From an uncultured Candidatus Saccharibacteria bacterium (GTDB taxonomy: Bacteria; Patescibacteriota; Saccharimonadia; CAILAD01; JADZBC01), in contig CAZRJR010000001.1 in NCBI GenBank assembly GCA_964600985.1, positions 335,431 through 399,430 of the forward strand: a DNA stretch of 64,000 nucleotides, given 5' to 3'. This document shows, piece by piece, positions 1 to 17,561 of the stretch; the first letter of the stretch is position 1; every line of letters begins with the position of its first letter. A program made the position numbers and the translations under genes. Below the pieces are notes generated by a model. It saw only the letters and a program-made list of their open reading frames with translations, was not told where the DNA came from and searched no databases.

Positions 1-34
1 GCGGTCGAATTGCCGGCGGACACCGAACGCGAAC

Positions 35-63
35 ATTGTAGCATAAGCTTTGTTATTTGTCAA
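35..63 (-). promoter_or_regulatory. Near-consensus sigma70-type promoter firing leftward out of the window (rc: TTGACA-17nt-TACAAT with TGcTACAAT extended -10)
   Basis: Plus strand 35-40 attgta and 58-63 tgtcaa give -10 and -35 with a 17-nt spacer on the minus strand. The spacer holds the AGCTTATGC motif seen in other promoters here. Confidence 0.5.
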
Positions 64-79
64 TAGCTTACCGCATTGA

Positions 80-108
80 TTGACATGCCGCGCTCAAAGG
101 CGTATTAT
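80..108 (+). promoter_or_regulatory. sigma70-type promoter (TTGACA 80-85, 17-nt spacer, TATTAT 103-108), divergent from the previous one
   Basis: Read directly: ttgacatgccgcgctcaaaggcgtattat. Confidence 0.5.
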
Positions 109-186
109 TCCTCCAATTCTGATATATCCATCAACCGACAGCGTGCGTGAATAACAGGAGGAACCTTGGAAGACGTAGAACAGTGG

Positions 187-315
187 ATGAAGCGGCGACG
201 CGCCCGGCGCATGAGAACCGCCCTAACAGTCGTCGCAGTGGCGGTCGTGATGATGGGGCTGGCGCTCATGCTGGGTACTGCCGGCTTCACCCTCGATCCT
301 TTGTCGAGCCCATGA
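187..315 (+). CDS. Small 42-aa ORF (MKRRRARRMRTALTVVAVAVVMMGLALMLGTAGFTLDPLSSP): basic N-terminus plus one hydrophobic helix. Its TGA overlaps the ATG of the next gene (ATGA).
   Basis: ATG at 187, stop at 313-315 overlapping the ATG at 312. High GC. Not in the ORF track (under 60 aa); found by reading frame 2. Confidence 0.35.
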   Translation: MKRRRARRMRTALTVVAVAVVMMGLALMLGTAGFTLDPLSSP

Positions 316-599
316 ACCGCGAGGACGCTGCCGAGGACAGCAACAACGATCCCTACCCCATGGTGGCCGTGGCTATCATGTCTGTGGTGGTCATTCTCGG
401 CGTAGCCACCTGGCTGCGCGATCCAATCCAGCATCTCCCCTATTGGGCCCTCTTCGCGCTCAAGGGTGCTGGTTGTGTGGCCGTGTTGACGATCTTTCTG
501 GCGGTGATCACGGTGATCATCACCAGTGACACTCCGATCTATCCCGGCACTAGCAGCACAGAGCCCGACGACAGCGAGGACGACCCAGTCCTTCCGTAG
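312..599 (+). CDS. Small integral membrane protein (~95 aa, 3 predicted TM helices), high GC
   Basis: ORF track 147..599, but its N-terminal 55 aa are low-complexity R/G-rich and overlap the small ORF. The internal ATG at 312 (MNREDAAEDS...) precedes hydrophobic segments. Strong GC3 bias. Confidence 0.5.
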   Translation: MNREDAAEDSNNDPYPMVAVAIMSVVVILGVATWLRDPIQHLPYWALFALKGAGCVAVLTIFLAVITVIITSDTPIYPGTSSTEPDDSEDDPVLP

Positions 600-687
600 T
601 CAACCCAACTGCCCTCGCGGGCGCCCCACCACTAAGGGGCCTCTGCGGGGGCTCCTTACTTTTACCCGTAAATCTTTTACAAATAAC

Positions 688-713
688 AAACGCACCTCCC
701 GAGAGGTGCGTTT
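688..713. terminator. Perfect 11-bp hairpin (aaacgcacctc-ccga-gaggtgcgttt) between convergent genes; likely bidirectional terminator
   Basis: Inverted repeat read directly. Lies between the stop of the 312..599 gene (+) and the stop of the 744..1172 gene (-). Confidence 0.5.
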
Positions 714-743
714 GCATTCCTCAAGAGGTGCTCTTGGTGCTAC

Positions 744-1172
744 CTACGTGCCCAGCAAAGCCGCTGCCGAGGTCTTGGAGGCGCCGAACAGGTAGAACTC
801 GGTATCCCGCATCAACAGATCCAGTGCTTCGCCAAGAGTTGCTAGCAAGCTGGCGTCGCTCACAGCAGGGTTGGACAACGTGGCCACCACCGAACCACTC
901 AGTTCACCGCGGCTGAGCCCAAGGAGCGCTTGACGAAGCTCCTCTCGCTCCTCCAGACGGTAGCTCCGCACGATCTGCATGGCAGCCCGCTTGGGCAGAA
1001 GCCTCTCTGCCTGGGTGGCCATGTATGCCTCGACCAAAGGCACAAGTACCGCGGATGGATACTCCTTGTTTGTAGAGAAACGCGAAGGTGCGGTCAGTTC
1101 CCTCCTTTCCACCACATAGCGCTGGAGCTTCTCCCCCGCGCCTGGCTTGCCGGCACACTTGCCAGCCTTCAA
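744..1172 (-). CDS. Hypothetical protein, high GC; the start is uncertain (TTG in the track, in-frame ATG at 1026)
   Basis: The ORF has strong GC3 bias. The upstream SD AAAGGAACG is followed by ATG-TGA in another frame (see findings). No family recognised. Confidence 0.4.
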   Translation of the reverse strand: MKAGKCAGKPGAGEKLQRYVVERRELTAPSRFSTNKEYPSAVLVPLVEAYMATQAERLLPKRAAMQIVRSYRLEEREELRQALLGLSRGELSGSVVATLSNPAVSDASLLATLGEALDLLMRDTEFYLFGASKTSAAALLGT

Positions 1173-1273
1173 CCAGAGACCAAGCAGGTCCCAGCTGATA
1201 CTTGCGCAGATACTTCCGTAGTTGTTGTCACATCGTTCCTTTCAAAGCTATGGGTAGCGAAACAACTGGCGAT

Positions 1274-1302
1274 ATTATGCCTTAAGTTACTCTTTGATTC
1301 AA
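1274..1302 (-). promoter_or_regulatory. Divergent promoter for the 744..1172 gene (rc: TTGAAT-17-CATAAT)
   Basis: Read directly on the reverse complement. Confidence 0.4.
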
Positions 1303-1313
1303 GCATAAGACTA

Positions 1314-1342
1314 TTGACAAATAGTAAAGCTTATGCTATTAT
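1314..1342 (+). promoter_or_regulatory. Consensus promoter TTGACA-17-TATTAT with extended -10 (TGcTATTAT); near-identical to the module at 35-63
   Basis: ttgacaaatagtaaagcttatgctattatg. 24 of 30 positions match the rc of 34-63. Confidence 0.6.
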
Positions 1343-1375
1343 GTCTCTCGGAACCTCGACAAGAAAGAAGACAAC

Positions 1376-1936
1376 ATGATCAGCGGAGTTTTGGCAATTG
1401 GCACTGTCGGCATCACGTTCTTCCTGATGGCGATTGCTCAGCCCATTCTGGGGAAGGTTCAGGGGTTCAAGCCTCCGAAGCATCTCGTCAGGTTGCCCAA
1501 CGAGATGCTTTTCCGAGTCCTCGCCGCACTCAGCATGGCGGTGATGCCGTTCCTCCAGCCCAACCAGGTTCCTACGCCCATCTTCGCGATCGGCGCCGGC
1601 ATCATGCTGGGGAGCTTGGCGCTGATGTTCTGGGCCCAGTTTACCCTCGGGAAGAACTGGATCCCAGGCGCCGGCATCCACCACAACCACAAGCTGGTTA
1701 CGAATGGACCTTACTCGAAGGTCCGGCACCCGCTCTACACGGCAATTGGGATCTTCTGGGTCGGCGCAGTCGTCGCAACCCTGAACATCGCAGTGCTGGT
1801 CGCAGGTGTGTTCATGTGGCTCTCGCTGGCCATCCGGGCTCCGTTCGAGGAGTCCCTGATGCGCCAGAAGTTCAAGAAGCGCTGGGAGAAGTACGAGGCT
1901 TCTACGGCCATGTTCTTCCCCCGCTTCCACGACTGA
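1376..1936 (+). CDS. Isoprenylcysteine carboxyl methyltransferase (ICMT)/phospholipid methyltransferase-family membrane methyltransferase
   Basis: Multi-TM protein with the C-terminal motif VTNGPYSKVRHPLY (the G-x-Y...RHP-x-Y signature of ICMT/PEMT-family enzymes). High GC. Confidence 0.8.
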   Translation: MISGVLAIGTVGITFFLMAIAQPILGKVQGFKPPKHLVRLPNEMLFRVLAALSMAVMPFLQPNQVPTPIFAIGAGIMLGSLALMFWAQFTLGKNWIPGAGIHHNHKLVTNGPYSKVRHPLYTAIGIFWVGAVVATLNIAVLVAGVFMWLSLAIRAPFEESLMRQKFKKRWEKYEASTAMFFPRFHD

Positions 1937-1946
1937 GGCAACCCAC

Positions 1947-2010
1947 AACCCCGCGGCACCGGGACTCTCCGACCCAAGAGAGCTCCGCGTGCCAGCGGGG
2001 TTTCTCTATT
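1947..2010 (+). terminator. GC-rich compound hairpin (CCCCGC...GCGGGG) followed by a T-rich tract; terminator of the methyltransferase gene
   Basis: ccccgcggcac...gtgccagcgggg stem, then tttctctattt. Confidence 0.45.
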
Positions 2011-2064
2011 TGAGCAAATAGTAGTGCGACCACAAACCCAAGCCAATTGTGTATAATAGCCCTT

Positions 2065-3213
2065 ATGAAGCACAAGCAAAGCTCTAGGTCGGCAACTCAC
2101 AGCAATAGTAATACTGTGGCTGCAGCCACAGTGGCCCCAGCGCCGGTCGCGAACAAAAAAGGTCCGCTCGCTTGGATTAAGCGCAACTGGTGGATTATTC
2201 CGATAGCTGTTGTGAGCCTCTCCCTTCTCGTGGCTGGCGGATTAGTGACTAAATCCAAGCTATCACCACAAATCGTAACCTGCCCCAAATCTACCGAGGA
2301 TTTTAAGTGTTGGCAAAAGCACTTTCAACAGCTGATTGCTGCCAAATCGCCCGAAGCGGCGTTCAAGGAGGCCAAGGCCGTCTATGACACGAGCTCGATC
2401 GTAAAGAATAATTGCCACCAGATCTCGCACGTGATTGGCCGAGCCAGCGCGCTCAAGTACAAGACCATTGTAGAGGCCTTTAATCACGGTGATAACTTCT
2501 GTTGGTCTGGCTACTACCACGGCGTTATGGAGGCTACTGCCAAGCGCCTAGGAGGGGCCAAAGTAATTGCCACTGCCCCAACCATTTGCAATGAATCTAA
2601 GGGCAATAAGCCGTATAGCTTTTATCACTACAACTGCGTGCATGGCCTAGGTCACGGCATTATGGGGATCGAAGACAATGAACTCTTTGACTCCCTCACC
2701 GTCTGCGATCGATTCCTCGACAACTGGGAGCAATCCTCGTGTTACGGCGGGGTATTTATGGAGAACATCATGAGCGCCTCTAATCCAGATCACCGCACAA
2801 ATTACATCAAGCCCGACCAGCCACTCTACCCGTGCACGGCGGTGGACGAAAAGTACAAGCAGCAATGCTACCTTATGCAAACTTCACAGGCCCTGGTAAC
2901 TGAGAATCAAGATTTTGACAAGGTATTTGCGCTGTGCGACGGCGTAGAAAGCCCGCACAACCTTACCTGCTACCAAAGCCTAGGGCGCGACGCCAGCGGA
3001 CATACTATTAGTAGTGTGGAAGGCACCGCTGCGCTCTGCAATAAAGGCACAAGCCAAGTGGCGCGCTCCAACTGCTTTGTAGGCGCAGTCAAAGACTTTA
3101 TTGGCTATTTTCACAAGCTCGATCCTGGCTTGCAGCTCTGCAGCGCCATTACCGAAGCCGACACTAAGAATGAGTGCATCACTACTGCCAATATGTATAT
3201 TCAGTCGTTTTAG
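2065..3213 (+). CDS. Membrane-anchored, cysteine-rich (about 20 Cys) extracytoplasmic protein, function unknown
   Basis: Extended -10 tgtgtataat at 2048-2057 and ATG at 2065 (MKHKQSS). One N-terminal TM helix, then a Cys-rich domain. Confidence 0.6.
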   Translation: MKHKQSSRSATHSNSNTVAAATVAPAPVANKKGPLAWIKRNWWIIPIAVVSLSLLVAGGLVTKSKLSPQIVTCPKSTEDFKCWQKHFQQLIAAKSPEAAFKEAKAVYDTSSIVKNNCHQISHVIGRASALKYKTIVEAFNHGDNFCWSGYYHGVMEATAKRLGGAKVIATAPTICNESKGNKPYSFYHYNCVHGLGHGIMGIEDNELFDSLTVCDRFLDNWEQSSCYGGVFMENIMSASNPDHRTNYIKPDQPLYPCTAVDEKYKQQCYLMQTSQALVTENQDFDKVFALCDGVESPHNLTCYQSLGRDASGHTISSVEGTAALCNKGTSQVARSNCFVGAVKDFIGYFHKLDPGLQLCSAITEADTKNECITTANMYIQSF

Positions 3214-3216
3214 CTC

Positions 3217-3582
3217 ATGAAGAACTCTACCAAAATTATAATTGTAGTACTAAGCCTTATCGCCGCTGGCATGCTTATTGGCGGTGGGCTGTGGTTGGCT
3301 GGCAGTAGCTCTGGAAGCACCTATGTGCCCGAGCAGGACGGTGCAAAGAGTATAAGCACGAGCGAGCTCACTGCTGCCGATGGCAAATCCGGCCATGCTT
3401 GCTGGGTGGCGATCGATGGCGCAGTGTATGAAATTAGCCAGGGTATACTGTGGGTCGACGGTGTACATAAATCTTCCGACAATCTCGCCTACTGCGGAGC
3501 TGATTTGAGTAAGGTAATTGACCAAGCACCCCATGGTCGCAAAAAGCTCGAGCAGCTCAAGGTTATTGGCAAACTACAGTAA
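3217..3582 (+). CDS. Small membrane-anchored protein with a possible cytochrome-b5-like (heme/steroid-binding-like) C-terminal domain
   Basis: N-terminal TM helix. The pattern EL...GHACWVAIDGAVYEIS...W.DG.H resembles b5-like domains but lacks HPGG, so this is a weak call. It starts 4 nt after the previous gene. Confidence 0.45.
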   Translation: MKNSTKIIIVVLSLIAAGMLIGGGLWLAGSSSGSTYVPEQDGAKSISTSELTAADGKSGHACWVAIDGAVYEISQGILWVDGVHKSSDNLAYCGADLSKVIDQAPHGRKKLEQLKVIGKLQ

Positions 3583-3692
3583 TAGCCGTCATTCTTCCTA
3601 CAAATGCAACGCAAAAGGCCCTCGGTAATTAGTACCAAGGGCCCATGGGCCGGTAGGTCCTGTTTCAGCCTACCGCACCCGCCTCTTTGTTA

Positions 3693-4049
3693 CTACAGGT
3701 ATTGGCCCGGATCGGGCTGCACCTGCTGCTTCACCGTCTCGAGCAGTCCACTGACCACTTCGTCCATGAAGCCGGCGCTGCTGACCCCCGTGGGCGTGAA
3801 GATCCGACGGATCTCATCGGCCAGCTCGGTGAAGCCACCAACGTTGTGGTACGTGGCATCAGTCCAGGCGAGATCCGCCAGGGCCACACCCTTGTCGCCA
3901 ACGTAGATGGACTGACCGTAGTTCTCGCTACGGAACACCTCCTTGGGCAGAGCCAGCGGCTTGGTCTCATCCAGCACGTAGATGATGATGGCCGGCACCT
4001 GATCCCCCACCTTGGGGTACCTGAACTCAATCTGGAACACTGGTTCCAT
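3693..4049 (-). CDS. Hypothetical 118-aa protein, high GC, has its own promoter and terminator
   Basis: SD AAAGGAGCG, then 5 nt, then ATG. Promoter at 4093-4121, terminator hairpin ggccct...agggcc plus T-run at about 3600-3635. Overlapping plus-strand ORFs in the track are rejected. Confidence 0.6.
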   Translation of the reverse strand: MEPVFQIEFRYPKVGDQVPAIIIYVLDETKPLALPKEVFRSENYGQSIYVGDKGVALADLAWTDATYHNVGGFTELADEIRRIFTPTGVSSAGFMDEVVSGLLETVKQQVQPDPGQYL

Positions 4050-4092
4050 TACACGCTCCTTTCAAAGCGTTTGAACTACAAAGAGTTACAAC

Positions 4093-4121
4093 ATAATACC
4101 ACTGCAAGCTTATGCTGTCAA
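4093..4121 (-). promoter_or_regulatory. Consensus promoter (rc TTGACA-17-TATTAT) with a GCATAAGCTT spacer motif
   Basis: Plus strand 4116-4121 tgtcaa and 4093-4098 ataata. Confidence 0.55.
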
Positions 4122-4124
4122 TAC

Positions 4125-4547
4125 TTATGCTACATCAGTAATCGGGATTGGGAAGCTACGGACAAAGGTCAATAACTGCTTTGGGTTCTTATGTAGGTCC
4201 ACTTCTATCCAGTTTCCTAACATACCATATTTAATCAGTTCCGCACGCTCGTCCGGGAACAAATCATCGTCAAACCATAGGAATGGCTTGCTTAGGTCTA
4301 TCGCTTCGGTCTTTGCCGTGTGCCAATTGGTTGGCTGGGCATGCTTGGCCAGCAGCTCAATCGTCGCGGGGTTCATGTTGGTTTGCGCAAGTCGTCGAAT
4401 GGCCGGGGCACTGTCTCCCCTACACCAAGTAGTCAGCCAATACACCTCCCCACGCTCCAGGCACTTAGCCACAAACTCATCCACGTGTGGCGCAACAAAC
4501 TTGTCATTAGCTAGTAACACCCCATCGATGTCGAGATAGACGTTCAC
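4125..4547 (-). CDS. HAD-superfamily hydrolase-like protein
   Basis: N-terminal motif YLDIDGVL (HAD motif I DxDGxL). GTG start 8 nt after the hsdR stop. Confidence 0.55.
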   Translation of the reverse strand: MNVYLDIDGVLLANDKFVAPHVDEFVAKCLERGEVYWLTTWCRGDSAPAIRRLAQTNMNPATIELLAKHAQPTNWHTAKTEAIDLSKPFLWFDDDLFPDERAELIKYGMLGNWIEVDLHKNPKQLLTFVRSFPIPITDVA

Positions 4548-4555
4548 TTTAAATA

Positions 4556-7549
4556 TTATGATGGTGTATTCTTATTTGTATTCGTGTACATTTCTTCAAA
4601 AATTCTTTCAGCGATTGTATCTTTCAGGGTGCTGTCCTCATCCAGCTTCTTATAGAATTCGGCTCGCTCCTTAAACATTTTCATAAGTTCATCTTGCATT
4701 ACAGAATTGAAGTGCTCGCGTGCTGCGCCCTTCGGGTTGTTGGCGATTGCTTTCTTGATATCATCTCGGTCGCGTATTCGTGAAATCAATAACATACCGT
4801 CTTCTTCCATGCCTTCTGGCAAGCCAAACTGTTCATTGATACTTTTTACAATCAAAGACAGGCGTTCCATTTCGTCTAGCGGCTTGCCGCTACGTGAATT
4901 GCTAGACATCGGGTCAAGCTCCGATTCCTCGTCTACCAAGCCAATAGCGGCCTTCTTGCCCTTAGAAATGGCGATAGAACTCAAATCTATGTAATCAAGC
5001 ATTTCGGTTGGCAGCGGATCCTTTTCTTTTGGCAGTTTCTTAGCCAAGTTGCGGATGTATTCGTAGAACTGCTCAAGTCCGGCATCGCCAAAATCAAACA
5101 GCTGCGCTATGAAGGCGTACTTGCGCGCAAAATCTACAGCCTTGTCACGGAATGCGGCCTTGTCATCGTCATCCAGGTCGTTCCAGCGTTGCACGGCTTC
5201 ATCCAGCAGGCCGGCGACAACCGCTTGGTTGTTTTGGTCGCCAGAAATCAGCAGCTGGTAATGTTGGCGGACTTGTTCCTCGCCAAATACGCTGGCGCTC
5301 AAAATGTCGCGCTTCAAATCGTACAAGATGTTCGGGTCGGTCGATTCGGACAAGATTGTGCTGGTGTAGTAAGGCTGGAAGTCTTTTTGGATGCTTTCGG
5401 CGTCATTCACAAAATCAAGCACAAATACGTTATCTTTGGCCTTGCCCATTGTGCGGTTTAGGCGACTGAGCGTCTGTACGGTTGCTACGCCGCCCAGTTT
5501 TTTATCGACATACATCACGGCCAGTTTTGGTTGATCAAAGCCAGTCTGGTATTTGTTAGCCACGATCAAGAATTTGTAGTCATCGCTATCGAACTTTTCG
5601 ACCGTTTCGGTTTCACTGAAGCCATTGAGGCCAGCTTCGGTATATTCTAGGCCGCCACGACTTGCATCGACAACCGTGCCAGAGAAGGCTACGATTGCTT
5701 TTTCCGGGTAGCCTTGCTTGGCCAAATAGTCGCGCACTGCTAGATAATAGCGCACGGCGTGTAGGCGAGATTTGGTTACTATCATGGCCTTTGCTTTGCC
5801 GTCTATCAGGCGCTCAATTTGAGAGCGGAAGTGCTCAACCATTAGCTCGGCCTTCTTTTCGATACCATGTTCGTGAAGGTCGGCGTAACCTATAGCCAGG
5901 CGGTAGGCCTTCTTCTTTTCAAACTCAGGGTCAAGCTCGGCCGCTTTTTGGGCGAGTTCAAAATACATTTTGTGCGTAGTGTAGTTTTTGAGAACGTCTA
6001 GGATGAAGCCTTCTTCAACAGCTTGCTTCATGCTGTACAGGCTGAATGGCGAGAAGCGGCCGTCAGCGCCTTTTACGCCAAACAATTCAAGCGTCTTTTC
6101 TTTTGGTGTAGCCGTAAAGGCAAAGAAGCTAACGTGCGGTAGCCGACCGCGTGCGGCCTGCGCGTCTAGCGCAAACTGTTCTTCAGCGTCCGGTGTGGTG
6201 TTGGCTTCGTCTTCCGCTTCAGCGTCTTCCAGTTTGCTCAGGGTTTGTTTCAATGCTTTAGTGCTTTCGCCGCTTTGGCTACTGTGCGCTTCATCGACAA
6301 TAACTGCGAAGGTTTTGCCGGACAGCTTTTCGATATCTTCAACAATAATCGGGAACTTCTGGAGTGTCGATACGATGATTTTGGTTTTGTCTTCCAGTGC
6401 TTCGCGTAGTTCAGCTGAGCTGGTTACGCCGCGCACCACATCGTGCTGCTGTTCAAACTGGCTTACTGTGTCGCGTAGCTGGCGGTCAAGTACCCGGCGG
6501 TCTGTGATTATGATTATCTTGTCAAAGACTTTGCGGTCTTCGGCGTTGTGTAGGTCGCTTAGGTTGTGTGCCGTCCAAGCGATAGAGTTCGACTTGCCGG
6601 AGCCGGCGCTGTGCTGGATGAGATAGTTCTTGCCGGCACCATTTTCGCGCGCATCAGCAATAAGTTTTCGCACCACATCGCGCTGGTGATAGCGAGGGAA
6701 TAGGAGCATTTCTTTTTTGTCGATACGGCCGGTCTTCAGGTCTTTTTTCTTCTCAACTGTGACATGCATGAAGCGGGCGATGATTTCGGCCAGACTATCT
6801 TTGGTGAACACGTCTTCCCATAGATAGTAAGTTGCGAATTTGTTTTCAACGGCCGGGTTGCCAGCACCGTTATTGTCGCCGCGATTGAATGGCAGGAAGT
6901 AGGTTTTTATACCGTCAATCTTGGTAGTCATAAAGGCCAGGTTGTTATCTACGGCAAAGTGAACAAGCGCGCGTTTGAAAGCAAACAGCTTGTCGCTCGG
7001 CTGGCGGTCTGTTTTGTATTGGTGGATTGCGTGCTGCACATTTTGGCCGGTTAGTTGGTTCTTCAACTCAAAAGAAACCACCGGGATTCCGTTGAGTAGC
7101 AGTACCATATCTACCGAGCGTTCATCGCGTGGGCTAAAATACACCTGACGCATCACGCTAAATACGTTGGTTTGGTAAAGTTTCTCAGCATCCGGGTTGA
7201 AGCCACTATTTGGCCGGCGATAGAAGAGGTCGATATGGACACCACGATCAGTAACACCCGAACGCAGCACATCTAGAACACCGATTTGTGAAAGTTCTTG
7301 ATCAAGCCTTCTAGCAAAACTTTCCAGTGCCTGGTCACCATAGATTTCGTGTAGGCGCGCCCACTCATTTGGTTGAGTGGTTTGAATGAAGCGACCTAGC
7401 AGTTCCAAATCGAGCGCAAGTGCGCGGTCATAGTCTTTGTCCTCGACTGGCCGGCCGGCTTCATCTGCACCACGCAAAATATAGCCGTTATGCTCAATAA
7501 GCCAGTTTGTTATGTATTGCTCGAAGTTGGTTTCTTTTAAATCTATCAT
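4556..7549 (-). CDS. hsdR: Type I restriction enzyme R subunit (HsdR), 997 aa
   Basis: Helicase motif I QHSAGSGKS and DEAH-like VIVDEAHSSQ. Size and layout are typical of HsdR. The ATG overlaps the stop of the upstream gene (ATGA). Confidence 0.9.
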   Translation of the reverse strand: MIDLKETNFEQYITNWLIEHNGYILRGADEAGRPVEDKDYDRALALDLELLGRFIQTTQPNEWARLHEIYGDQALESFARRLDQELSQIGVLDVLRSGVTDRGVHIDLFYRRPNSGFNPDAEKLYQTNVFSVMRQVYFSPRDERSVDMVLLLNGIPVVSFELKNQLTGQNVQHAIHQYKTDRQPSDKLFAFKRALVHFAVDNNLAFMTTKIDGIKTYFLPFNRGDNNGAGNPAVENKFATYYLWEDVFTKDSLAEIIARFMHVTVEKKKDLKTGRIDKKEMLLFPRYHQRDVVRKLIADARENGAGKNYLIQHSAGSGKSNSIAWTAHNLSDLHNAEDRKVFDKIIIITDRRVLDRQLRDTVSQFEQQHDVVRGVTSSAELREALEDKTKIIVSTLQKFPIIVEDIEKLSGKTFAVIVDEAHSSQSGESTKALKQTLSKLEDAEAEDEANTTPDAEEQFALDAQAARGRLPHVSFFAFTATPKEKTLELFGVKGADGRFSPFSLYSMKQAVEEGFILDVLKNYTTHKMYFELAQKAAELDPEFEKKKAYRLAIGYADLHEHGIEKKAELMVEHFRSQIERLIDGKAKAMIVTKSRLHAVRYYLAVRDYLAKQGYPEKAIVAFSGTVVDASRGGLEYTEAGLNGFSETETVEKFDSDDYKFLIVANKYQTGFDQPKLAVMYVDKKLGGVATVQTLSRLNRTMGKAKDNVFVLDFVNDAESIQKDFQPYYTSTILSESTDPNILYDLKRDILSASVFGEEQVRQHYQLLISGDQNNQAVVAGLLDEAVQRWNDLDDDDKAAFRDKAVDFARKYAFIAQLFDFGDAGLEQFYEYIRNLAKKLPKEKDPLPTEMLDYIDLSSIAISKGKKAAIGLVDEESELDPMSSNSRSGKPLDEMERLSLIVKSINEQFGLPEGMEEDGMLLISRIRDRDDIKKAIANNPKGAAREHFNSVMQDELMKMFKERAEFYKKLDEDSTLKDTIAERIFEEMYTNTNKNTPS

Positions 7550-8274
7550 GGTAAATCCCTCTCTCCTGATACTAGCTTGTATAAGTTTCTTGCCGCTTCG
7601 TCTTCATCCACTGTATATTCGATGACCTTTGTTACTACAAAAGGTATGATTTCTTTTTCCAACTTAGCAAAGAGGACGTTTATGTAGATGCGCCAATTGC
7701 GGCCGCTACCATCATCTTCGAATACCCGCCACTTTGACATCTTTTCTATTCTGTCGTCTAATGTCGGGACGGGTTGGCCGCGTCTTGGCTGCTTAAACTC
7801 AAAAGTAACAACTTGTTTACCATGCTCTACCGTGCCTAGATGGGCTAAGTAATCTCGAAACCCATTCCAGATGAGTTTTTGTCCTGCAGCATCATTTTTA
7901 TCAACGCCAAGTTCAATGCCATTGTCGAACAAAAGCTTGATAAAGTGTCTGAAGGCATCTGTTTCGCTCACAGTGAAATACACTGAGTCGTGTGGAGTGA
8001 AGCGTTGTGGCTTATCTATGAAGTAGCAAATCTTCGTTAATAGACTCAATGCACTAAATGCGGCCAGAGCAGAAGTTATATTGCCACCACCTAGTTCATT
8101 ATCGATATGTAGATTATTGGCACGTACATAGACAAATGTACGATGATCGGCGCATAGTCCACCAATTCGTTCTTGAATAATCTTGACTACTTCTGATTTA
8201 TAAACACCAATAGCCCCACTGCCATATCCGGCAGCGACAACTCTTTCGGCGATTTCGTATTGGTCTATCATCAA
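7546..8274 (-). CDS. Hypothetical 242-aa protein embedded in the hsd operon. Contains an R-x4-H dyad (FRDYLAHLG) reminiscent of HEPN RNases; family not identified.
   Basis: ATGA overlaps on both sides (with orf420 and hsdR). GC is about 42%, versus about 49% for the hsd genes. Confidence 0.6.
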   Translation of the reverse strand: MMIDQYEIAERVVAAGYGSGAIGVYKSEVVKIIQERIGGLCADHRTFVYVRANNLHIDNELGGGNITSALAAFSALSLLTKICYFIDKPQRFTPHDSVYFTVSETDAFRHFIKLLFDNGIELGVDKNDAAGQKLIWNGFRDYLAHLGTVEHGKQVVTFEFKQPRRGQPVPTLDDRIEKMSKWRVFEDDGSGRNWRIYINVLFAKLEKEIIPFVVTKVIEYTVDEDEAARNLYKLVSGERDLP

Positions 8275-9533
8275 TCAGTTTCCTTAACTTCACTGCCGTC
8301 AGAGTATAGGTTGTAGATTAGGTAGTGCATCTCAACTGATTTTTTATCGTCTTCCAAGCTGTGCTTAGCTACGAAATGCGTAGGGTCTATTTGCTGAAAA
8401 CCATTTATATATGATTCGCTGTTGATAATCTCGGCCGCCAGACTGTCGCGGACTTGTGTGAAGTTTTTATTGCGTGCGAAGAAAATAATAACGCCAAAGT
8501 TATGTCGCCAAGTAAGGTAACCCCTGATTTGGTCTATTGTACTGAAAAGAAGTTGTTTGCCGCCCCATATCTTGCACTCAAAAATCAATATATTACCCTT
8601 GTCGATGCGCAGGTAGATATCTGTTTTGCCTTTTTTCGAGAAGGTTTCGCCAGTGGCAGACCCGTCAAACACTTCATTGAGGTGAGCAAGCAATAAATCT
8701 CGCAATTCTTCCTCACCAAGCGGCGAAACAGATTTCGGTGTTCGCTCCAGCGCCTTCATGTAGCTGTCGATGAATTTGATAATCTCCAAGACTTTCTTTT
8801 GGTCAAGCTCGTACTCTTCCACCGGCTTAGCTTCTGGTTTGAGCTTCTTAACCTCTTTCTTGACCTGTATTCTAGGCTGGACTGGTTCGGTAGCGCCGCG
8901 TTTTACTAGGGGAATTGATATCTTTTTTGATATACCATCTAACAAAGATTCGTTCTTGCTTATCTGTTCTTTGCGTGCGTTTATCTCATTGAGTGCCGCC
9001 TGCTTCAGCTCGGCATTGTGCTTCTTTATATCATTATTTTTCCACTCTATTTGCTGGTTAATGCGCTCGACTTCGGACGCAACTCTTTGTGCGACCTGGT
9101 CGTCGTTTAGCTCTAGGTTATAGGCTTTTATATCAAACCCAACGCCAATACAGTTTTGGTCGATTATGTAATTATCCAGGCTGTAGCTAACAGTAAAGGT
9201 AGATGTCAGTAGTGGCCAAAATTTTCGAAAGTCAGGAAAGTCATCTATCCAAGTACGGATTACACCTCGCTTTATTGGGAAGTTGCGCAAAGGACCTTCA
9301 TTTGCATACCACTCATCGCGCTGATTCGCCGGAATATCTACAACATCTTGTATTATTTCAAGCTCAGGACCTTTGACTATCTGTAGTTCCGGTAGGCCAT
9401 ATTTGTCGTAGTAATACTCGGCAAGCTCTTCTGTATCTGTACCGACTATAGTTGCTTCAGATTCACGGCGTATTTCACCCTGCATATCTTCAATTATCTT
9501 GCGGTATAAGTCGCTTATAGAAGCCCTGTTCAT
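8271..9533 (-). CDS. Hypothetical 420-aa protein embedded in the hsd operon. Central coiled-coil; C-terminal PD-(D/E)xK-like nuclease motif (GKTDIYLRID ... ILIFECKIW ... QIRGY).
   Basis: ATGA overlap with the hsdS stop and with the orf242 start. Low GC. The D...ExK spacing is typical of the restriction-endonuclease fold. Confidence 0.6.
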   Translation of the reverse strand: MNRASISDLYRKIIEDMQGEIRRESEATIVGTDTEELAEYYYDKYGLPELQIVKGPELEIIQDVVDIPANQRDEWYANEGPLRNFPIKRGVIRTWIDDFPDFRKFWPLLTSTFTVSYSLDNYIIDQNCIGVGFDIKAYNLELNDDQVAQRVASEVERINQQIEWKNNDIKKHNAELKQAALNEINARKEQISKNESLLDGISKKISIPLVKRGATEPVQPRIQVKKEVKKLKPEAKPVEEYELDQKKVLEIIKFIDSYMKALERTPKSVSPLGEEELRDLLLAHLNEVFDGSATGETFSKKGKTDIYLRIDKGNILIFECKIWGGKQLLFSTIDQIRGYLTWRHNFGVIIFFARNKNFTQVRDSLAAEIINSESYINGFQQIDPTHFVAKHSLEDDKKSVEMHYLIYNLYSDGSEVKETD

Positions 9534-10828
9534 ACTTTAATCTTTCCGGTGACGGCACTTGATATGAGGCTTGTGCGGCGCTCTTTTAGCAGGTCAATCT
9601 GTTCCTGGACTTTGCTTTTTAACGCCTCGTTTTTTACTTCACAATCATCCAGATACTTGGCTATTCTTTGTTGCTCATCTAAATTGAAATGGACGAAAAA
9701 AAGCTCGTTGAAAATTGTGCTGTTTAGGTTTGCCAGCCCAGAGGTGCTATTGGAGTAGTAGTTGTATTGTTCGCGGGCAAGTTGAGAGTTAAGAAGGTAC
9801 CAGTAGAATTTTGGCTCCTCATTTTCTTTGAGCCTCAATCGCTGCATGAAGTTTGAGTAACTATAACCTTGAGTAGATTCATCCACTACAGAGGTCTTGC
9901 CTATATGAAGTTCGCTACCGCTCGATTTGGTGATAACTAGATCACCAATTTCCAGTCTTGTTTTGTCATATTCTGACTTAGTAATTTGACGCGTGGCCGG
10001 GTCATCAAGGATCCATTGCCCGGTCATTGTCTGTTCAGTGGAGCGTAAAACAACAACGTCGGTTTCATTTCCCATAGGGTCATTTCCCCAAGCTCCGCCC
10101 GTATTTAGAGACAGTATGAACTTTAGTTGTTTCGCTGTAGTGCCGTAAGGTACCTCGCTTAACCACGTATTTTCCGTGTCTTTGAATTCTGCATTGTGGT
10201 TTAGACCGCGCGTGACGGCGTTGGTGATGGTTGCGCGGCGCTTCTCTTCCAGGAGTTCTAGCAGGTGTTGCTGTTTTGCGATTAGGTCGTCAATGAGCGC
10301 TGTTTCTTCATCCAGGTAATTAATTATGCGCTGTTGGGTATCGATAGACGGAACTGGTAGGTAGTATTTCTTGAACTCCGAGTAATTCAGCGTTAGGCGA
10401 ATACCCGTTCCCCAGCCATTTAGTACTTTCTGTCCATCTAGTGCTTTAAGTAAATAAGTAGCATACATCGGCAGAATGTTTTTGCGTGTGCGTAGTGATA
10501 TGTAGGCAGGTGTTATACACCCGCTTTTTTTGACTACGGCCACACGCTGGGTAAGAAAATCGTAGTTCAAGTTTAGGCCGTTTAGCATAATGTCGTCTTT
10601 CTCGACAACGGTATAGCGCCTTATTTCTTCTTTCGTCTTCTCATCCACGTCTATTTTTTTGTCGATAATCTCACCCAGCTTGAATTGCATAGGCTCAACA
10701 GATAGTAAGTCGGTGTTTGTTTGCTTATTCTCCTTGAAAAGAACGGATGCACGCAGCAAATTCCACTCATCAGGAATATCTCCCAAATATTTCAAACCAG
10801 AGTCTTTCATCGTCTGGTATGTTTGCAT
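9530..10828 (-). CDS. hsdS: Type I R-M specificity subunit (HsdS), two target-recognition domains
   Basis: Size (432 aa), position between hsdM and hsdR, and conserved central/terminal repeats (LxxLL...ITNAVTRGLN / ISSAVTGK). Confidence 0.85.
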   Translation of the reverse strand: MQTYQTMKDSGLKYLGDIPDEWNLLRASVLFKENKQTNTDLLSVEPMQFKLGEIIDKKIDVDEKTKEEIRRYTVVEKDDIMLNGLNLNYDFLTQRVAVVKKSGCITPAYISLRTRKNILPMYATYLLKALDGQKVLNGWGTGIRLTLNYSEFKKYYLPVPSIDTQQRIINYLDEETALIDDLIAKQQHLLELLEEKRRATITNAVTRGLNHNAEFKDTENTWLSEVPYGTTAKQLKFILSLNTGGAWGNDPMGNETDVVVLRSTEQTMTGQWILDDPATRQITKSEYDKTRLEIGDLVITKSSGSELHIGKTSVVDESTQGYSYSNFMQRLRLKENEEPKFYWYLLNSQLAREQYNYYSNSTSGLANLNSTIFNELFFVHFNLDEQQRIAKYLDDCEVKNEALKSKVQEQIDLLKERRTSLISSAVTGKIKV

Positions 10829-12516
10829 TAGTCCGTTACCTCGTTCAGCAATTTCAAAATATCTTTCGTGACGGCCTGTAGGTCGTCATCGATTTCATCG
10901 AGGTCGCGTGGCGGTTTGTATTCGTAGAAGTAGCGGTTGAACGGTATTTCGTAGCCAATGCGGTCTTTTTTACGGTCAAGTTTTGCTTCTGGCAGGTGTG
11001 GCAATACTTCGCGCTTGAAGTATTCGTCAATATCTTCACCTAGGGGCACATTTTCGGTATCTTTTTCTTTGCCGTTTAGCACCGTTACTTGCGTATAGCC
11101 AAAGTTTGCGGCGTCAAAAATCTTACTGCGCTTAGTAGGCGCGAACTTTTCGTATAGCTCGTATACTTCATCGATGTCTTCGGCCGTCATCTCTTTGTTC
11201 TTGTCGCCCAAGTTTTTGCGCAGCTTGTGGAATATGTTGCTGGCGTCTATTAGCTGGACTTTGCCTTTCCGCTCGGCGCTCTTGCGGTTTGTTAGCACCC
11301 AGATGTAGGTTGCGATGCCGGTGTTGTAGAACATGTTTGTCGGCAGAGCGATGATAGCTTCCAGGTAATCATTTTCAAGTGCCCAGCGGCGGATTTCGCT
11401 TGGACCGCTACCGGCTGCGCCAGTGAAAAGTGGTGAGCCGTTGTGGACCACCGCAACACGGCCACCCCCTTCATGCGCAGGTCGTAGCTTGCTTACCATG
11501 TGCTGAAGGAATAGCATTTGGCCATCGCTCACGGCTGGCGTGCCGGCCGGGAAACGCCCAGCGCTGCCGCGCGCGGCTTCAGCCTCAACAGCGTCCTTGT
11601 CTTTCTTCCAATCTGTACCGTATGGCGGGTTTGCGATTACATAGTCAAATGTCTTGTCGTAGAATTGGTCGTTACTGAGCGTGCTGTCTTCGGCGTGCTC
11701 GCCGCTGCCGCCTTTGATGCGGTTGGCATCTTCGCCTTTGATCAAAATATCACTTTTGGCGATAGCGTAGGTTTGGGGGTTTAGCTCCTGGCCATATAGG
11801 TAAACTTCGGCAGCCGGGTTGATTTTAGTCTGGATGTATTCTTTTCCAATGGTGAGCATGCCGCCGGTACCCATAGCCGGGTCATACATTTCAATGATTT
11901 TGTTTTCGCCTTTGATGCGCGCGGCATCCGGTTCTAGTAGTAAGCGCACCATCAGGCGGATAACCTCACGCGGCGTGTAGTGCTCTCCGGCGGTTTCGTT
12001 CGATTGCTCATTGAACTTACGGATCAGTTCTTCAAAGATGTAACCCATGTCGTGGTTGCTCACGGCTTCAGGGCTTAGGTCTACTTTGTCCAGTTCTTTT
12101 ACTATCAGGTGGAGTATTTTGCCGCCCTTTAGTTTGTTTAGCTGTTTGGCAAAGTCGAACTTCTCGATAATGTCGCGCACATTTGGGCTGTAGCCGTCTA
12201 GATAGTTGATGAAGTTGGCGTAGATGCCTTCGCTATCGTCAAGCAGCTTTTTGAAGTCGTAGGGGCTTGTGTTGTAGAACTTGTAGCCAGCGGCCTGCTC
12301 CAGGAAGGGCGTGAGGTCTGACACTTTGCCATCCATATCGCCGTAGGTACGCAGTACTTCGGGCTTCGTCTTGGCAAGCACACTATCTAGGCGTTTGAGC
12401 ACCACGAGCGGGAGTATCACGTCCTGGTATTCGTGCTGCTTCCAGCCACCGCGCAAAATGTCGGCGATATTCCATATAGTTGATGCTTGGTTTTTCGGGT
12501 TTTCGTGTGCTTCCAT
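10828..12516 (-). CDS. hsdM: Type I R-M N6-adenine DNA methyltransferase subunit (HsdM)
   Basis: Motifs GEHYTPREV, DPAMGTGGML (AdoMet binding) and VIANPPYG (catalytic NPPY). Confidence 0.9.
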   Translation of the reverse strand: MEAHENPKNQASTIWNIADILRGGWKQHEYQDVILPLVVLKRLDSVLAKTKPEVLRTYGDMDGKVSDLTPFLEQAAGYKFYNTSPYDFKKLLDDSEGIYANFINYLDGYSPNVRDIIEKFDFAKQLNKLKGGKILHLIVKELDKVDLSPEAVSNHDMGYIFEELIRKFNEQSNETAGEHYTPREVIRLMVRLLLEPDAARIKGENKIIEMYDPAMGTGGMLTIGKEYIQTKINPAAEVYLYGQELNPQTYAIAKSDILIKGEDANRIKGGSGEHAEDSTLSNDQFYDKTFDYVIANPPYGTDWKKDKDAVEAEAARGSAGRFPAGTPAVSDGQMLFLQHMVSKLRPAHEGGGRVAVVHNGSPLFTGAAGSGPSEIRRWALENDYLEAIIALPTNMFYNTGIATYIWVLTNRKSAERKGKVQLIDASNIFHKLRKNLGDKNKEMTAEDIDEVYELYEKFAPTKRSKIFDAANFGYTQVTVLNGKEKDTENVPLGEDIDEYFKREVLPHLPEAKLDRKKDRIGYEIPFNRYFYEYKPPRDLDEIDDDLQAVTKDILKLLNEVTD

Positions 12517-13105: not shown

Positions 13106-13771
13106 ATGCACGGCATCCAGCTCGTCGTCGTGACCATTGCGATGATCTTCATGTCCCTCTATGCAATTCGAGAGCTTTACCTGTGGCGAGCTGAGATCAT
13201 CCTCGGTACTCGACTGGGAACCGCCTACGGTGTGTTCTGGGGCCTCGTCCTCACGTACACGGCCGGCAAGTGTTTCCAGAACTTCCAGGTGGGGCCGGAG
13301 TTCTACCGGTACCACTTGAACGACCTTGGCTTTGTGGCCGCCTGGGGCGGCATCATCTTGAACATCGAGATGAAGAGCCTTTGTCGCCGGGAGTTCGTGG
13401 CCTTCAACAAGCGGCCCATCATCACGCTTCGCATGGGACTGAGTGTGGCGCTCATAGCCGCTCTCATGTTCGAGTACATGACCGCGCACGATGATGGCAC
13501 CTTCACCACCCAGGGGCTTCACTACTCCGGCCAGTTGGACTACATGGACATCACCATGTACCTGACCTGTTTCGTTGCCATGTGGCTTCTCGCTCCGTGG
13601 ATGTACGAAGTCAGAGACGCTCCTGCCGTGGCCGAGGTGAGTGTTGCCCCAGCGGCAGCCAAGAGCCGGGCGCAGAAGTTGACCCCACCCACTGGTGTTG
13701 ACCCGAAAGCTATGTCTCGACGGACCACCCCCAAGGGGACCAGGCCCCAGCCAGCGAGGCGCAAGCGGTAG
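13106..13771 (+). CDS. Polytopic membrane protein (about 5-6 TM helices), high GC, unknown function, basic P/R-rich C-terminal tail
   Basis: SD CAGGAG before the ATG. Hydrophobic segments. GC3-rich codons. Confidence 0.6.
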   Translation: MHGIQLVVVTIAMIFMSLYAIRELYLWRAEIILGTRLGTAYGVFWGLVLTYTAGKCFQNFQVGPEFYRYHLNDLGFVAAWGGIILNIEMKSLCRREFVAFNKRPIITLRMGLSVALIAALMFEYMTAHDDGTFTTQGLHYSGQLDYMDITMYLTCFVAMWLLAPWMYEVRDAPAVAEVSVAPAAAKSRAQKLTPPTGVDPKAMSRRTTPKGTRPQPARRKR

Positions 13772-13840
13772 TACAAGTGATGCGACAGCATCCCGCCGAG
13801 CTCCAGCAAGGAACTTGGAACTACCCAAGAGGGTACATGC

Positions 13841-13890
13841 CCCGATGAGAGTCACCCGACTCTACGTCGGGGCTCTTTTCGTTTAATTAA
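13841..13890 (+). terminator. GC-rich hairpin (CCCCGAtGAGAGTC...GACTCTaCgTCGGGG) plus CTCTTTTCGTTT
   Basis: Inverted repeat read directly. Confidence 0.45.
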
Positions 13891-13920
13891 TAACGTATTT
13901 ATATCGACGTACTAGTTGAA

Positions 13921-13952
13921 AGAGACCTGCCCAGTTTACCCAGGCAGGTCTC
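13921..13952. terminator. Perfect 10-bp hairpin gagacctgcc/ggcaggtctc between convergent genes
   Basis: Inverted repeat read directly. Confidence 0.45.
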
Positions 13953-13982
13953 GATCGTTTGCTGAATTTTTACTTCGGGCGA

Positions 13983-15235
13983 CTAAGCCACCAGCAGTTC
14001 CTTGCCGATGTCGGACCGGTACTGCTTGCCGGGGAACTGAATGAGCTCCACAGCGCGGTTGTTGTGCGTCTTGGCCACGTGAGGGTTGGCGTGGCGCGTT
14101 ACCACCGTGAGCACTCGCCCGCCCTTGGTGATCAGTTGCGACTCTTCATCGAGGTCGACACCCCCAAAGAAGATCTCCGTGCCGGGAACCTTCTGAGCCA
14201 CCTCTAGCCCAACGATCACGAACCCGTCACGGATCGCCGCCGAGTCTGGGTAGCCCTCGCTAGACAGCACAGTGGCAATCGTGTACTCCGGCGAGAACTC
14301 CACCGGATCCATGGGGAGGCCTGAGGCAGCCTGCTTGAAGGTCGTAAGCAGGTTGCTGGTAACCCGTGGCAGTACTGCCTGAGCCTCCGGGTCACCCATG
14401 CGGATGTTGTACTCCAGCAGGTAGGGCATGCCATCCACGATCATCAACCCGGCGTAGATGATGCCGCGGTAATCGATGCCACGGCGCTGCAGCTCGGCCA
14501 GGAGCGGCCGAATGGTCAGCTCGGCCCAATCGCTGAGCTTGGACTGATCGCGGGTGCGCGAGTACGCCCCCACGCCGCCGGTGTTGACGTCGGAACCAAG
14601 CGACAAGCGCTTGTAGTCCTGTGCCCCCTCGAGGAGCACATACTCGGTGCCGTTGCAGATGGCGAAGATCGAAACTTCGTACGCCTCGCCCGGCCCCTTG
14701 TTTTCGAGCGGCTGCTCGATCACCAGGGTCTTACCGGCTTCACCGAACTTACCGTCCAGCTTCTGCTGAGCGTCACGCACAGCGGCGTCGTAGTCGTGGG
14801 TCACAAACACACCCTTGCCGGCGGCCAAGCCATCGGTCTTGATCACACAACCGCCGTAGCGGTCCATCATGTAGCGCACTGCCGCCAGCATGTCTGCGGT
14901 ATTGGAAACCACACGGTACTCGGCCGTGCGTATTCCGGCCGCGCTGGCGATGCGCTTCATCCAGACCTTGGAGCCTTCCAGCTGAGCGCCAACAGCACCC
15001 GGACCCAGCACCAGCTTGCCCTGCCGGCGCAGCCGATCTGCTTCTCCGTGAACCAGGGGCTGCTCGGGGCCATACACGAACAGATCCGCCACCACATCGT
15101 CGGCCGACTTCACCCGCTCGAAAGGCATGCCGGGGTTGCCGCCCACCACCACGATATCGGCGTGGCGCCCCAGAACTTTGGCCAGGGCATGCTCGCGCGC
15201 ACCGCCTCCAATTACACAGACTCTCGGCCTGGTCA
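13983..15235 (-). CDS. purD: Phosphoribosylamine--glycine ligase (GAR synthetase, PurD), high GC
   Basis: N-terminal RVCVIGGGAREHALA (ATP-grasp PurD signature) and overall PurD architecture. GTG start at 15235 preferred over TTG 15248. Confidence 0.85.
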
Positions 15236-15374
15236 CTGATCCACTCAAGGTACCTTCTCTTTTCTATAGGGAACTACCATTCTGGCAATTCAACAAACGA
15301 ACGTGCGTACTATACCATAATTACTTTTTGTATCAAAGCATAAGATCTGACCGCCACAGACAAGCTGCTACATA

Positions 15375-17367: not shown

Positions 17368-17561
17368 ACTCCAATCCTAGCACAAAACAAAAATGCGACC
17401 CGAGATATTCTCGAATCGCTCAGTCTAGATACTTCCCTGTTATCTACTGCCGACATCCAATGGAAATGTTTGAACTGAAAAAGCGGATCAAGGAATAATC
17501 CCCGAACCGCTATGGGGCCAATGAGTCCAAAATGCCCATTGCACCCCTCCTCTTGACCGAG

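Follow-up and report, generated by a model that had tools for sequence, protein, structure and literature searches.

Bases 1-2010 of a Saccharibacteria genome segment may well belong to an old, lineage-restricted, GC-rich accessory gene block

We analysed a 64,000-nucleotide stretch of DNA from an uncultured Candidatus Saccharibacteria bacterium (GenBank assembly GCA_964600985.1, contig CAZRJR010000001.1, positions 335,431 to 399,430 of the forward strand), hereafter referred to as the window, and in particular its first 2,010 bases, whose high GC content sets them apart. The reading we favor, at a probability of roughly 0.55, is that bases 1-2010 form the right-hand end of a GC-rich block of accessory genes that is old and restricted to the lineage. 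In such a block, each gene or gene pair would form a compact transcription unit of its own, headed by a near-consensus promoter of the sigma-70 type and closed by a strong terminator hairpin. A sharp anomaly in GC content and in GC content at third codon positions (GC3), combined with promoters of the resident type, resembles a fresh import, yet here it appears to be a conserved feature of the lineage; that is, composition alone would misdate and misattribute the region.

Four coding sequences, arranged in three compact transcription units, make up bases 1-2010. We refer to them as genes A, B and C and, after its protein family, the ICMT gene. The predicted features of the stretch are as follows.

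63 to 35, minus strand: near-consensus sigma-70-type promoter, TTGACA-17-TACAAT with TG, 11 of 12 matches
80-108, plus strand: promoter TTGACA-17-TATTAT, 11 of 12 matches, serving the A-B operon
156-161, plus strand: Shine-Dalgarno sequence AGGAGG, 4 nt ahead of the TTG start of A, as read from the sequence
166-315, plus strand: gene A, TTG start, a single-pass mini-protein of 49 residues
312-599, plus strand: gene B, 95 residues, two transmembrane helices and an acidic, Pro-rich tail
611-652, plus strand: GC-rich 16-bp hairpin, then CTCCTTACTTTTAC (to 665); predicted intrinsic terminator of the A-B operon, -34.5 kcal/mol, z score -3.7
687-714, no strand assigned: perfect 12-bp hairpin, predicted bidirectional terminator that ends gene C, z scores -7.0 and -5.6
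744-1187, minus strand: gene C, lineage-restricted, with homology running from 1187 down to 744 and its end at hairpin 687-714
1230-1232, minus strand: remnant of the C start codon: an ATG with GAAAGGAA ahead of it and TGA directly after it, with the frame of C offset by one base
1302 to 1274, minus strand: weak promoter-like site for C, TTGAAT-17-CATAAT, 9 of 12 matches
1314-1342, plus strand: near-consensus promoter of the ICMT gene with extended -10, TTGACA-17-TG-n-TATTAT, 11 of 12 matches
1376-1936, plus strand: ICMT/PEMT-family integral-membrane methyltransferase dependent on S-adenosylmethionine (SAM), 186 residues, with RHPLY and EE motifs
1947-2002, plus strand: long imperfect hairpin, then TTTCTCTATTTG; predicted ICMT terminator and right boundary of the GC-rich stretch, -38.6 kcal/mol, z score -5.4

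The composition of this stretch is atypical by every measure applied. Its GC content is 0.574, compared with an average of 0.500 (standard deviation 0.036) over 2-kb windows, of which just 5% reach 0.57 or more. GC content and GC3 are 0.62 and 0.72 in A, 0.60 and 0.77 in B, 0.61 and 0.70 in C, and 0.60 and 0.82 in the ICMT gene, versus 0.48-0.52 and 0.47-0.58 in a set of 13 housekeeping genes (nrdAB, gltX, mreB, murA, pyrG, secA, serS and others). The initial annotation had given a GC content of about 60% with strong GC3 bias on a background of about 48%; the figures for the genes are confirmed (coding sequences at 0.60-0.62, GC3 at 0.70-0.82), and the background is nearer to 50%. Windowed GC and GC3 profiles and codon usage, which had been proposed as a check, likewise mark bases 1-2010 as atypical: in codon usage, the island genes lie at a distance of 0.50-0.71 from the housekeeping set, and the housekeeping genes themselves at 0.18-0.33. 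GC content at first and second codon positions (GC1 and GC2) and the content of Gly, Ala, Arg and Pro are also higher in the island genes. The intergenic promoter regions are AT-rich, with a GC content of 0.40-0.48. Bases 1-2010 thus depart from the resident genome in base composition and codon usage, the trait by which genomic islands are recognized. Patches with a GC content of 0.58 or more (101-2050, 3601-4050, 13151-15300, 17451-17900, 28251-28750 and 53651-56000) make up about 12% of the window, and the remainder is mostly uniform; the first 20 kb form a mosaic that also includes low-GC genes (0.43-0.45), e.g., part of a type I restriction-modification system.

One explanation for such a patch is an assembly or binning artefact, i.e., a foreign GC-rich fragment joined to the contig. 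Two Logan contigs from independent assemblies bear on this possibility. L001 (SRR14932662) corresponds to window positions 632-5305 at 99.7% identity, with 13 of 13 differences within 5174-5297, and L002 (SRR14932695) corresponds to positions 1664-3809 at 100%. Because both contigs cross the junction between GC-rich and mid-GC DNA near base 2010, bases 1-2010 are not chimeric at their right edge, and the concern about a chimeric assembly raised in the initial annotation is dispelled on that side. L001 begins at base 632, inside the island, and the left border lies beyond the window, which leaves an artefact some room; against it, GC-rich genes are linked to mid-GC genes in related genomes too, and we regard an artefact as extremely unlikely.

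The same block is found in related contigs, metagenomic or from metagenome-assembled genomes (MAGs) and 1.5-16 kb in length, namely L003, L004 and L086 (which share a lineage), L090 and L094. In these relatives the block is contiguous over about 9 kb and comprises a membrane protein of 161-194 residues, A and B, a protein of 165-174 residues, C, one or two ICMT/PEMT genes, small winged helix-turn-helix-like proteins, a further gene, G, and, in L090 and L094, PurD. GC-richness extends to the orthologues in every relative (GC3 0.65-0.85), but not to the orthologue of a pilin gene of the window. In L086, read in the orientation of the window, a leftward gene for a 194-residue membrane protein is followed by a rightward A-like gene (46 residues) and B-like gene (102 residues) with a 1-nt overlap, by leftward genes for a 165-residue protein and C (200 residues), and by the rightward ICMT gene and a further family member, PEMT2. 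L090 (NCBI MAG GCA_041907025.1) carries PEMT2, C, a 174-residue gene, a B-like gene, an uncalled A-like open reading frame (ORF), a 163-residue membrane protein, a pilin-like gene (56% identity to window 15381-16199) and a PurD gene 62% identical to that of the window. L094 (GCA_964573585.1, 16 kb) has the same core plus PurD in an uninterrupted block (about 2.6-11.4 kb, GC 0.55-0.63), between flanks of GC 0.45-0.50 and with a type I hsdR gene immediately to the left; the block of the window likewise lies near type I restriction-modification genes. L003, finally, has the ICMT gene (92% identical), PEMT2 and then the orthologue of window gene G (3693-4049). Methyltransferase content varies among the copies, which hold the ICMT gene alone, the ICMT gene with PEMT2, or PEMT2 alone. 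PEMT2 and the ICMT gene were also considered as recent duplicates within the lineage; we rejected this, as their products share 28% identity over 78 residues, which is below that of ICMT with its Chloroflexota homologues.

Relative to these contigs, the copy in the window is rearranged and eroded. C appears to have lost its start and about 50 N-terminal codons; the window has neither the 165-174-residue gene nor PEMT2; in place of PEMT2, genes E and F (2065-3582, GC 0.51) are inserted; and PurD lies about 12 kb away, past the restriction-modification genes. The island continues beyond the left edge of the window, as had been suspected, and synteny in the relatives supports this: the promoter at 63 to 35 points leftwards out of the window, towards a gene which in the relatives encodes the membrane protein of 161-194 residues, and the L086 gene at 6834-7418 has a leader that aligns with window bases 1-34.

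These findings bear directly on the reading given in the initial annotation, namely a recent acquisition from a high-GC, actinobacterial-like donor whose genes were then fitted with promoters of the recipient type. The GC and GC3 values far above background and the AT-rich intergenic promoter regions (0.40-0.48) are what such an import predicts. A recent island would, in addition, be absent from relatives or find its best hits in a foreign donor; the block is instead syntenic in L003, L004/L086, L090 and L094. The contigs that bear the close homologues of ICMT and C also carry orthologues of other window genes (pilin at 56%, PurD at 62-68%, and gene G), so the best hits fall in the flanking genes' own lineage, and on this point the recent-import reading fails. 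The block, its composition and its promoters are common to relatives at 23-68% protein identity.

The search for a donor points in the same direction. In a genome scan with ICMT, covering one genome per species for 185,579 species, the best genome matches were at 29-40% identity and mostly from Anaerolineales/Chloroflexota, with Actinomycetota accounting for 3 of the best 80; these figures, and the absence of any homologue above 40% outside the lineage, hold among the matches listed. Plasmid matches reached at most 35%. A search of 5.8 billion protein clusters returned two close ICMT homologues, at 92% and 65%, and otherwise matches of at most 42% with partial coverage. PEMT2, at 28%, is more distant from ICMT still. 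For C there is no homologue outside the lineage: a C-family profile, run with HMMER over 1.84 billion representative proteins, retrieved four clusters, all of them of that same family. The expectation of actinobacterial best hits is therefore not borne out, since the best ICMT matches are from Chloroflexota/Anaerolineales with few Actinomycetota among the matches listed, and C has none outside the lineage.

Weak hints of Actinomycetota come from three sources. PurD has six in-lineage clusters at 65-73% identity, beyond which matches are at 50% or less; 6 of 9 named NCBI hits outside the lineage belong to Actinomycetota/Acidimicrobiales (47-49%), but one from Patescibacteria and one from Thermoanaerobacterales are equally close. 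Solved PurD structures, also tried as a pointer to a donor, are all about equally distant and give no signal. The GC-rich block of L090 contains a Pup-like ORF (E 3e-4, under the Pfam cutoff), and A resembles DUF3040 (E 0.01), a match that is absent from other A homologues. Judging from these comparisons, a recent or specifically actinobacterial transfer is not supported, and we consider the recent-import account very improbable. An ancient transfer from a high-GC donor that cannot be named is possible, even likely.

The regulatory DNA of the block is conserved as well. The ICMT promoter and its leader of about 30 nt are near-identical in the window, L003, L004 and L086, and L003 and L004 keep the ICMT terminator hairpin. 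L086 retains the divergent promoter pair at 35-108, including the -35 and -10 hexamers of 80-108. The hairpin after B (611-652) is almost invariant in four lineages, with nearly all stem positions unchanged and one compensatory pair, whereas the B proteins are just 20-30% identical, approximately. The motif of hairpin 687-714 is conserved too; it occurs twice in L086, flanking the 165-residue gene that the window lacks, and the second copy ends that gene. The conserved leader and terminators had no match in Rfam. The post-B hairpin regions compared are located as follows.

Window: 611-652 and 687-714
L086: 6130-6270
L090: 3536-3604
L094: 5708-5780

Because promoters, leader and terminators are conserved in the relatives, they are old parts of the block; i.e., the proposed refitting of donor genes with recipient promoters does not hold as a recent event.

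Conservation of this kind could also arise if the block were a mobile island or integrative element that moves among related hosts with its own composition and regulatory DNA. The window and L086 share about 95% identity in the post-B terminator, at about 20% in the B proteins; the block adjoins type I restriction-modification genes in two genomes; its gene content varies (ICMT, ICMT with PEMT2, or PEMT2); and weak HTH_17 (excisionase-like) and Bro-N matches occur in the relatives. However, no integrase, transposase, tRNA gene or border repeat was found in the window or the related contigs. More specifically, tRNA genes are absent within 20 kb in the window and from L003, L086, L090 and L094, and the search for integrases in the window and the related contigs gave only the weak HTH_17 match; the left border lies beyond the window for both searches. 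Divergence of the coding sequences is about equal to that of the pilin gene, which lies outside the island, and this argues against recent exchange; structural constraint adequately explains the conserved hairpins. C had no match in phage records (tblastn), plasmid collections or IMG/VR, and ICMT has distant relatives there only: tblastn against phage records gave one weak partial match, and two JGI metagenome scans and one IMG/VR scan with a peptide motif returned no member of its subfamily. We therefore regard a mobile element as an improbable explanation.

The age of the anomaly was also assessed from divergence. Island and non-island genes differ between the window and the relatives to a similar degree, with identities of 65% for ICMT, 43-46% for C, 61-68% for PurD (the figures were taken over different aligned lengths, and the 61% refers to the partial L090 copy) and 56-57% for pilin. 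Fourfold-degenerate sites at conserved residues are identical at 0.45 in ICMT, 0.31-0.38 in C, 0.40 in PurD and 0.25 in pilin, with 0.25-0.31 expected by chance; that is, these sites are at or near saturation. Their GC content, between the window and L086 or L090, is 0.64-0.76 for ICMT, C and PurD versus 0.46-0.59 for pilin. Because at least four diverged relatives share the block together with its GC-richness and regulatory DNA, whatever gave rise to the composition predates their split. An anomaly of this age is compatible with a partly ameliorated import that was very GC-rich, or with some force that maintains GC content.

The latter possibility requires no transfer at all: the genes would be native and lineage-specific, with GC-richness actively maintained, e.g., through codon selection tied to strong promoters, through GC-biased gene conversion in a variable region prone to recombination, or through selection on mRNA structure. 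The fourfold-site GC content of 0.64-0.80 in orthologue pairs near saturation fits this idea, as does the fact that 6 of the 11 consensus promoters in the window lie at GC-rich genes, which span about 12% of it; C, A and B, moreover, have no relatives outside the lineage. On the other hand, GC1, GC2 and amino-acid composition are shifted too, beyond GC3; PurD is not obviously highly expressed; and nrdA, with the same promoter type, has ordinary GC3. The known effects of biased gene conversion in bacteria are far smaller than a GC3 shift of 0.25-0.3, which weighs against this explanation. Overall, we hold native origin with maintained GC content to be possible though unlikely.

Our preferred reading thus remains that of an old accessory block, whose origin would most likely be one ancient transfer from an unsampled GC-rich source, with partial amelioration since. 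The ICMT enzyme may use SAM to methylate a carboxylate, phosphate or thiol of a membrane-embedded, lipid-like substrate and, jointly with A, B and the remaining small membrane proteins, may act in modification of the cell envelope. Several points weigh against this reading. The related contigs are short; "same lineage" here means shared synteny and similar divergence, not phylogeny; the fourfold sites of ICMT and PurD are not fully saturated, which, at 25-91 sites per pair, leaves the argument from GC3 persistence semi-quantitative; a closer ICMT homologue may lie outside the matches listed, although the word search of 5.8 billion proteins argues otherwise; and, with donor, integrase, tRNA gene and border repeat all not found, transfer is deduced from composition alone.

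A more specific scenario is that the whole block of about 9 kb (ICMT/PEMT genes, small membrane proteins, PurD and, in one relative, the Pup-like ORF) passed in ancient times from a GC-rich bacterial host, e.g., of the Actinomycetota, to the ancestor of an ultra-small, host-dependent lineage. Selection would then have kept it throughout a clade of family level while its promoters and terminators were remodelled to the recipient consensus, and its membrane proteins and lipid methyltransferases would serve in interacting with the envelope of the host. In a related version, GC-richness would be actively held against the mutational equilibrium of the genome. Both versions are speculative, and we think them improbable as they stand.

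Compared with atypical genomic islands that are read as horizontally acquired, the old accessory block that we favor is alike in consisting of discrete patches odd in GC content, GC3 and codon usage, and in lying in a variable region next to restriction-modification genes, with many ORFans and small membrane proteins. It differs in that synteny and composition are kept across diverged relatives, in its conserved promoters and terminators of the resident type, and in that mobility genes, tRNA genes, border repeats and an identifiable donor were not found for the block. What emerges is a small lineage-restricted gene set, i.e., A, B, C and two divergent ICMT/PEMT methyltransferases, with unusually conserved regulatory DNA, whose members are reasonable candidates for envelope modification. 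Two GC-rich islands of the window are, in addition, joined into one ancestral block; otherwise, the region displays ordinary genome mosaicism and no new mechanism.

Genes A and B are, by their sequence, a predicted translationally coupled pair, as had been proposed. The start of B overlaps the stop of A (ATGA, 312-315), B has no Shine-Dalgarno sequence of its own, and the pairing is kept in L086, L090 and L094. The junction is a 1-nt TGATG overlap in L086 and L094 and a gap of about 9 nt in L090. Protein A is rich in Arg at its N-terminus, spans the membrane with one helix and carries the motif FTLDP at its C-terminal end. Its homologues in L086, L090 and L094 are ORFs of 45-46 residues directly ahead of B; they are 27-47% identical and have a common C-terminal motif, and the B orthologues in the same contigs have the same architecture at 18-33% identity. 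Against DUF3040, a family of small actinobacterial membrane proteins, A scores 16.6 bits, below the Pfam cutoff of 24.7. This match and one to SepX/GlpR were rejected as compositional; they do not recur among the homologues (DUF3040 in one of four A homologues). The pair is like other coupled pairs of small membrane proteins in its stop/start overlap, in a downstream gene without a Shine-Dalgarno sequence and in pairing conserved over four lineages; it differs in that the L090 ORFs are about 9 nt apart. Pfam and NCBIfam searches revealed no homology to any described pair or toxin-antitoxin module.

Gene C in the window is probably a degraded copy, as judged from its reading frame. It is equivalent to residues 54-200 of orthologues that are 184-200 residues long, i.e., the first 50 or so residues are gone, and it is 43-46% identical to these orthologues. 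The first in-frame start is a TTG at 1172 without a Shine-Dalgarno sequence, and one gene caller chose an ATG at 1022. The independent assembly L001 is identical at the remnant start codon. No Pfam or NCBIfam family matched C; its AlphaFold model is all-helical with a mean pLDDT of 62, and Foldseek found no match in the PDB below E = 1.

The assignment of the ICMT gene to its family is well founded, in agreement with the initial annotation. Its product scores 44.3 bits against Pfam PEMT (PF04191; cutoff 25) and 38.8 bits against ICMT (PF04140; cutoff 24), and the VTNGPYSKVRHPLY motif found in the ICMT-family protein is present. A family profile matches the solved archaeal ICMT 4A2N over its full length (E 1.2e-31, positions 12-191 of 193), and VRHPLY (residues 116-121) and EE (158-159) are invariant in the alignment. 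The score against the NCBIfam equivalog NF040696, i.e., protein-S-isoprenylcysteine O-methyltransferase proper, is 77.2 bits, below the cutoff of 160. The enzyme resembles Ma-ICMT of Methanosarcina acetivorans (PDB 4A2N) in this full-length profile match, in size (186 versus 194 residues) and in the C-terminal RHPxY and EE motifs. It differs in its low identity, in a score below the equivalog cutoff, and in that the usual F-G-x-x-Y after EE reads F-K-K-R-W in the window protein. LmtA, the lipid A 1-phosphate methyltransferase of Leptospira, and MddA, the methanethiol S-methyltransferase, belong to the same superfamily of membrane methyltransferases, but the window protein falls in neither family: it scores 34.6 bits against the LmtA family TIGR04571 (cutoff 325), and no MddA model matched. 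One distant ICMT match carries the JGI label MddA-like.

Prenylcysteine is probably not the substrate of this enzyme because CaaX prenylation is not known from bacteria. We tentatively propose, with low confidence, SAM-dependent methylation of a membrane lipid or of a lipid-linked component of the envelope, by an enzyme whose cluster would otherwise consist of small membrane proteins. An enzyme of this family had been thought unusual in a reduced genome; ICMT/PEMT genes are instead a stable part of the block in this lineage, and not an oddity of one genome.

A 12-codon ORF (MSLGTSTRKKTT) at 1340-1378 begins inside the -10 box of the ICMT promoter and overlaps the ICMT start (ATGA). Its counterpart in L004 and L086 is in frame with the ICMT gene, and gene callers fused the two. 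This ORF probably lies upstream of the transcription start and would hence be untranslated.

The promoters were scored against TTGACA and TATAAT hexamers with a spacing of 16-18 nt, upstream of a gene. Of the four predicted sites in bases 1-2010, three match at 11 of 12 positions and one at 9. The initial annotation had described a near-perfect promoter for each gene. Four sites are indeed present where it placed them (35-63, 80-108, 1274-1302 and 1314-1342); the site at 1302 to 1274 is the one with just 9 of 12 matches, and 35-63, which forms a divergent pair with 80-108, lies on the minus strand and belongs to a gene beyond the window. A Shine-Dalgarno sequence before each gene had likewise been described; that of A is canonical (AGGAGG) and the ICMT gene has a purine-rich AAGAAAGAAG, but B has none, and C has none at its sole in-frame start. 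Promoter-like sites are enriched in bases 1-4600, with 10 sites versus 3.2 ± 2.0 in shuffled sequences, and TTGAC[AT]-N16-18-TAnnnT occurs at 11 sites in the window versus 2.8 expected. The same consensus promoter type precedes nrdA, the pilin gene and the u912 and u377 genes, which are mid-GC, as well as six GC-rich units.

Two further GC-rich elements of the window relate to the block.

3693-4049, minus strand: gene G, 118 residues, GC 0.61, GC3 0.82, no recognized family; promoter at 4121 to 4093, 11 of 12 matches
13106-15248, both strands: second GC-rich island, with a 221-residue gene of no recognized family (plus strand) and PurD (minus strand), GC 0.60-0.63

Gene G has a strong terminator, and its orthologue in L003 lies one gene past the ICMT gene; because of this proximity, G can be assigned to the same ancestral block. 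In the window, genes E and F separate the ICMT gene from G. PurD in L090 (5260-6673) and L094 (6424-9501) is a few genes from A, B and C, in the same GC-rich block. Since PurD thus lies beside the A-B-C genes in both relatives, bases 1-2010, gene G and the second island are pieces of one ancestral block.

Gene E encodes a Cys-rich, membrane-anchored protein of 382 residues, and the product of gene F is cytochrome-b5-like (E 2.5e-4). An extended -10 box (TGTGTATAAT) at window 2048-2067 ends 7 nt ahead of the ATG of E, and PEMT2 in L003 (about 860-884) and L004 (about 1415-1437) has a TATACT 7-8 nt ahead of its ATG. From this spacing, the transcripts of E and PEMT2 look leaderless in this lineage. 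The Pup-like segment of L090 (DALLDEIDQVLDQ) is part of a 90-residue ORF at 632-904 with a GC content of 0.66 and a Cys-rich C-terminus, and it has no counterpart in the window.

The largest GC-rich patch of the window, 53651-56000, has a GC content of 0.64 and ORFs that overlap on both strands; these had no Pfam match and no match to the related loci. A consensus promoter lies at 56143 to 56115 on the minus strand. The type I restriction-modification system (hsdR, hsdS, hsdM) occupies 4556-12516, with two low-GC genes of 242 and 420 residues (7546-9533) between hsdR and hsdS. All differences between L001 and the window lie in hsdR, which suggests strain variation. The window comes from a 486,810-bp contig of an organism that has no close relatives among those sequenced. 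Of the 11 housekeeping proteins present in the collection, ten are the sole members of their 90%-identity clusters, NrdB being the exception. SecA and PyrG are at about the same distance from the solved structures of Bacillus, Thermotoga, Mycobacterium and E. coli. Lastly, genes for a sortase, a type IV pilin, TagA, MurA, MreB and a CtpA-type protease indicate, by annotation of their sequences, an envelope of the Gram-positive type.

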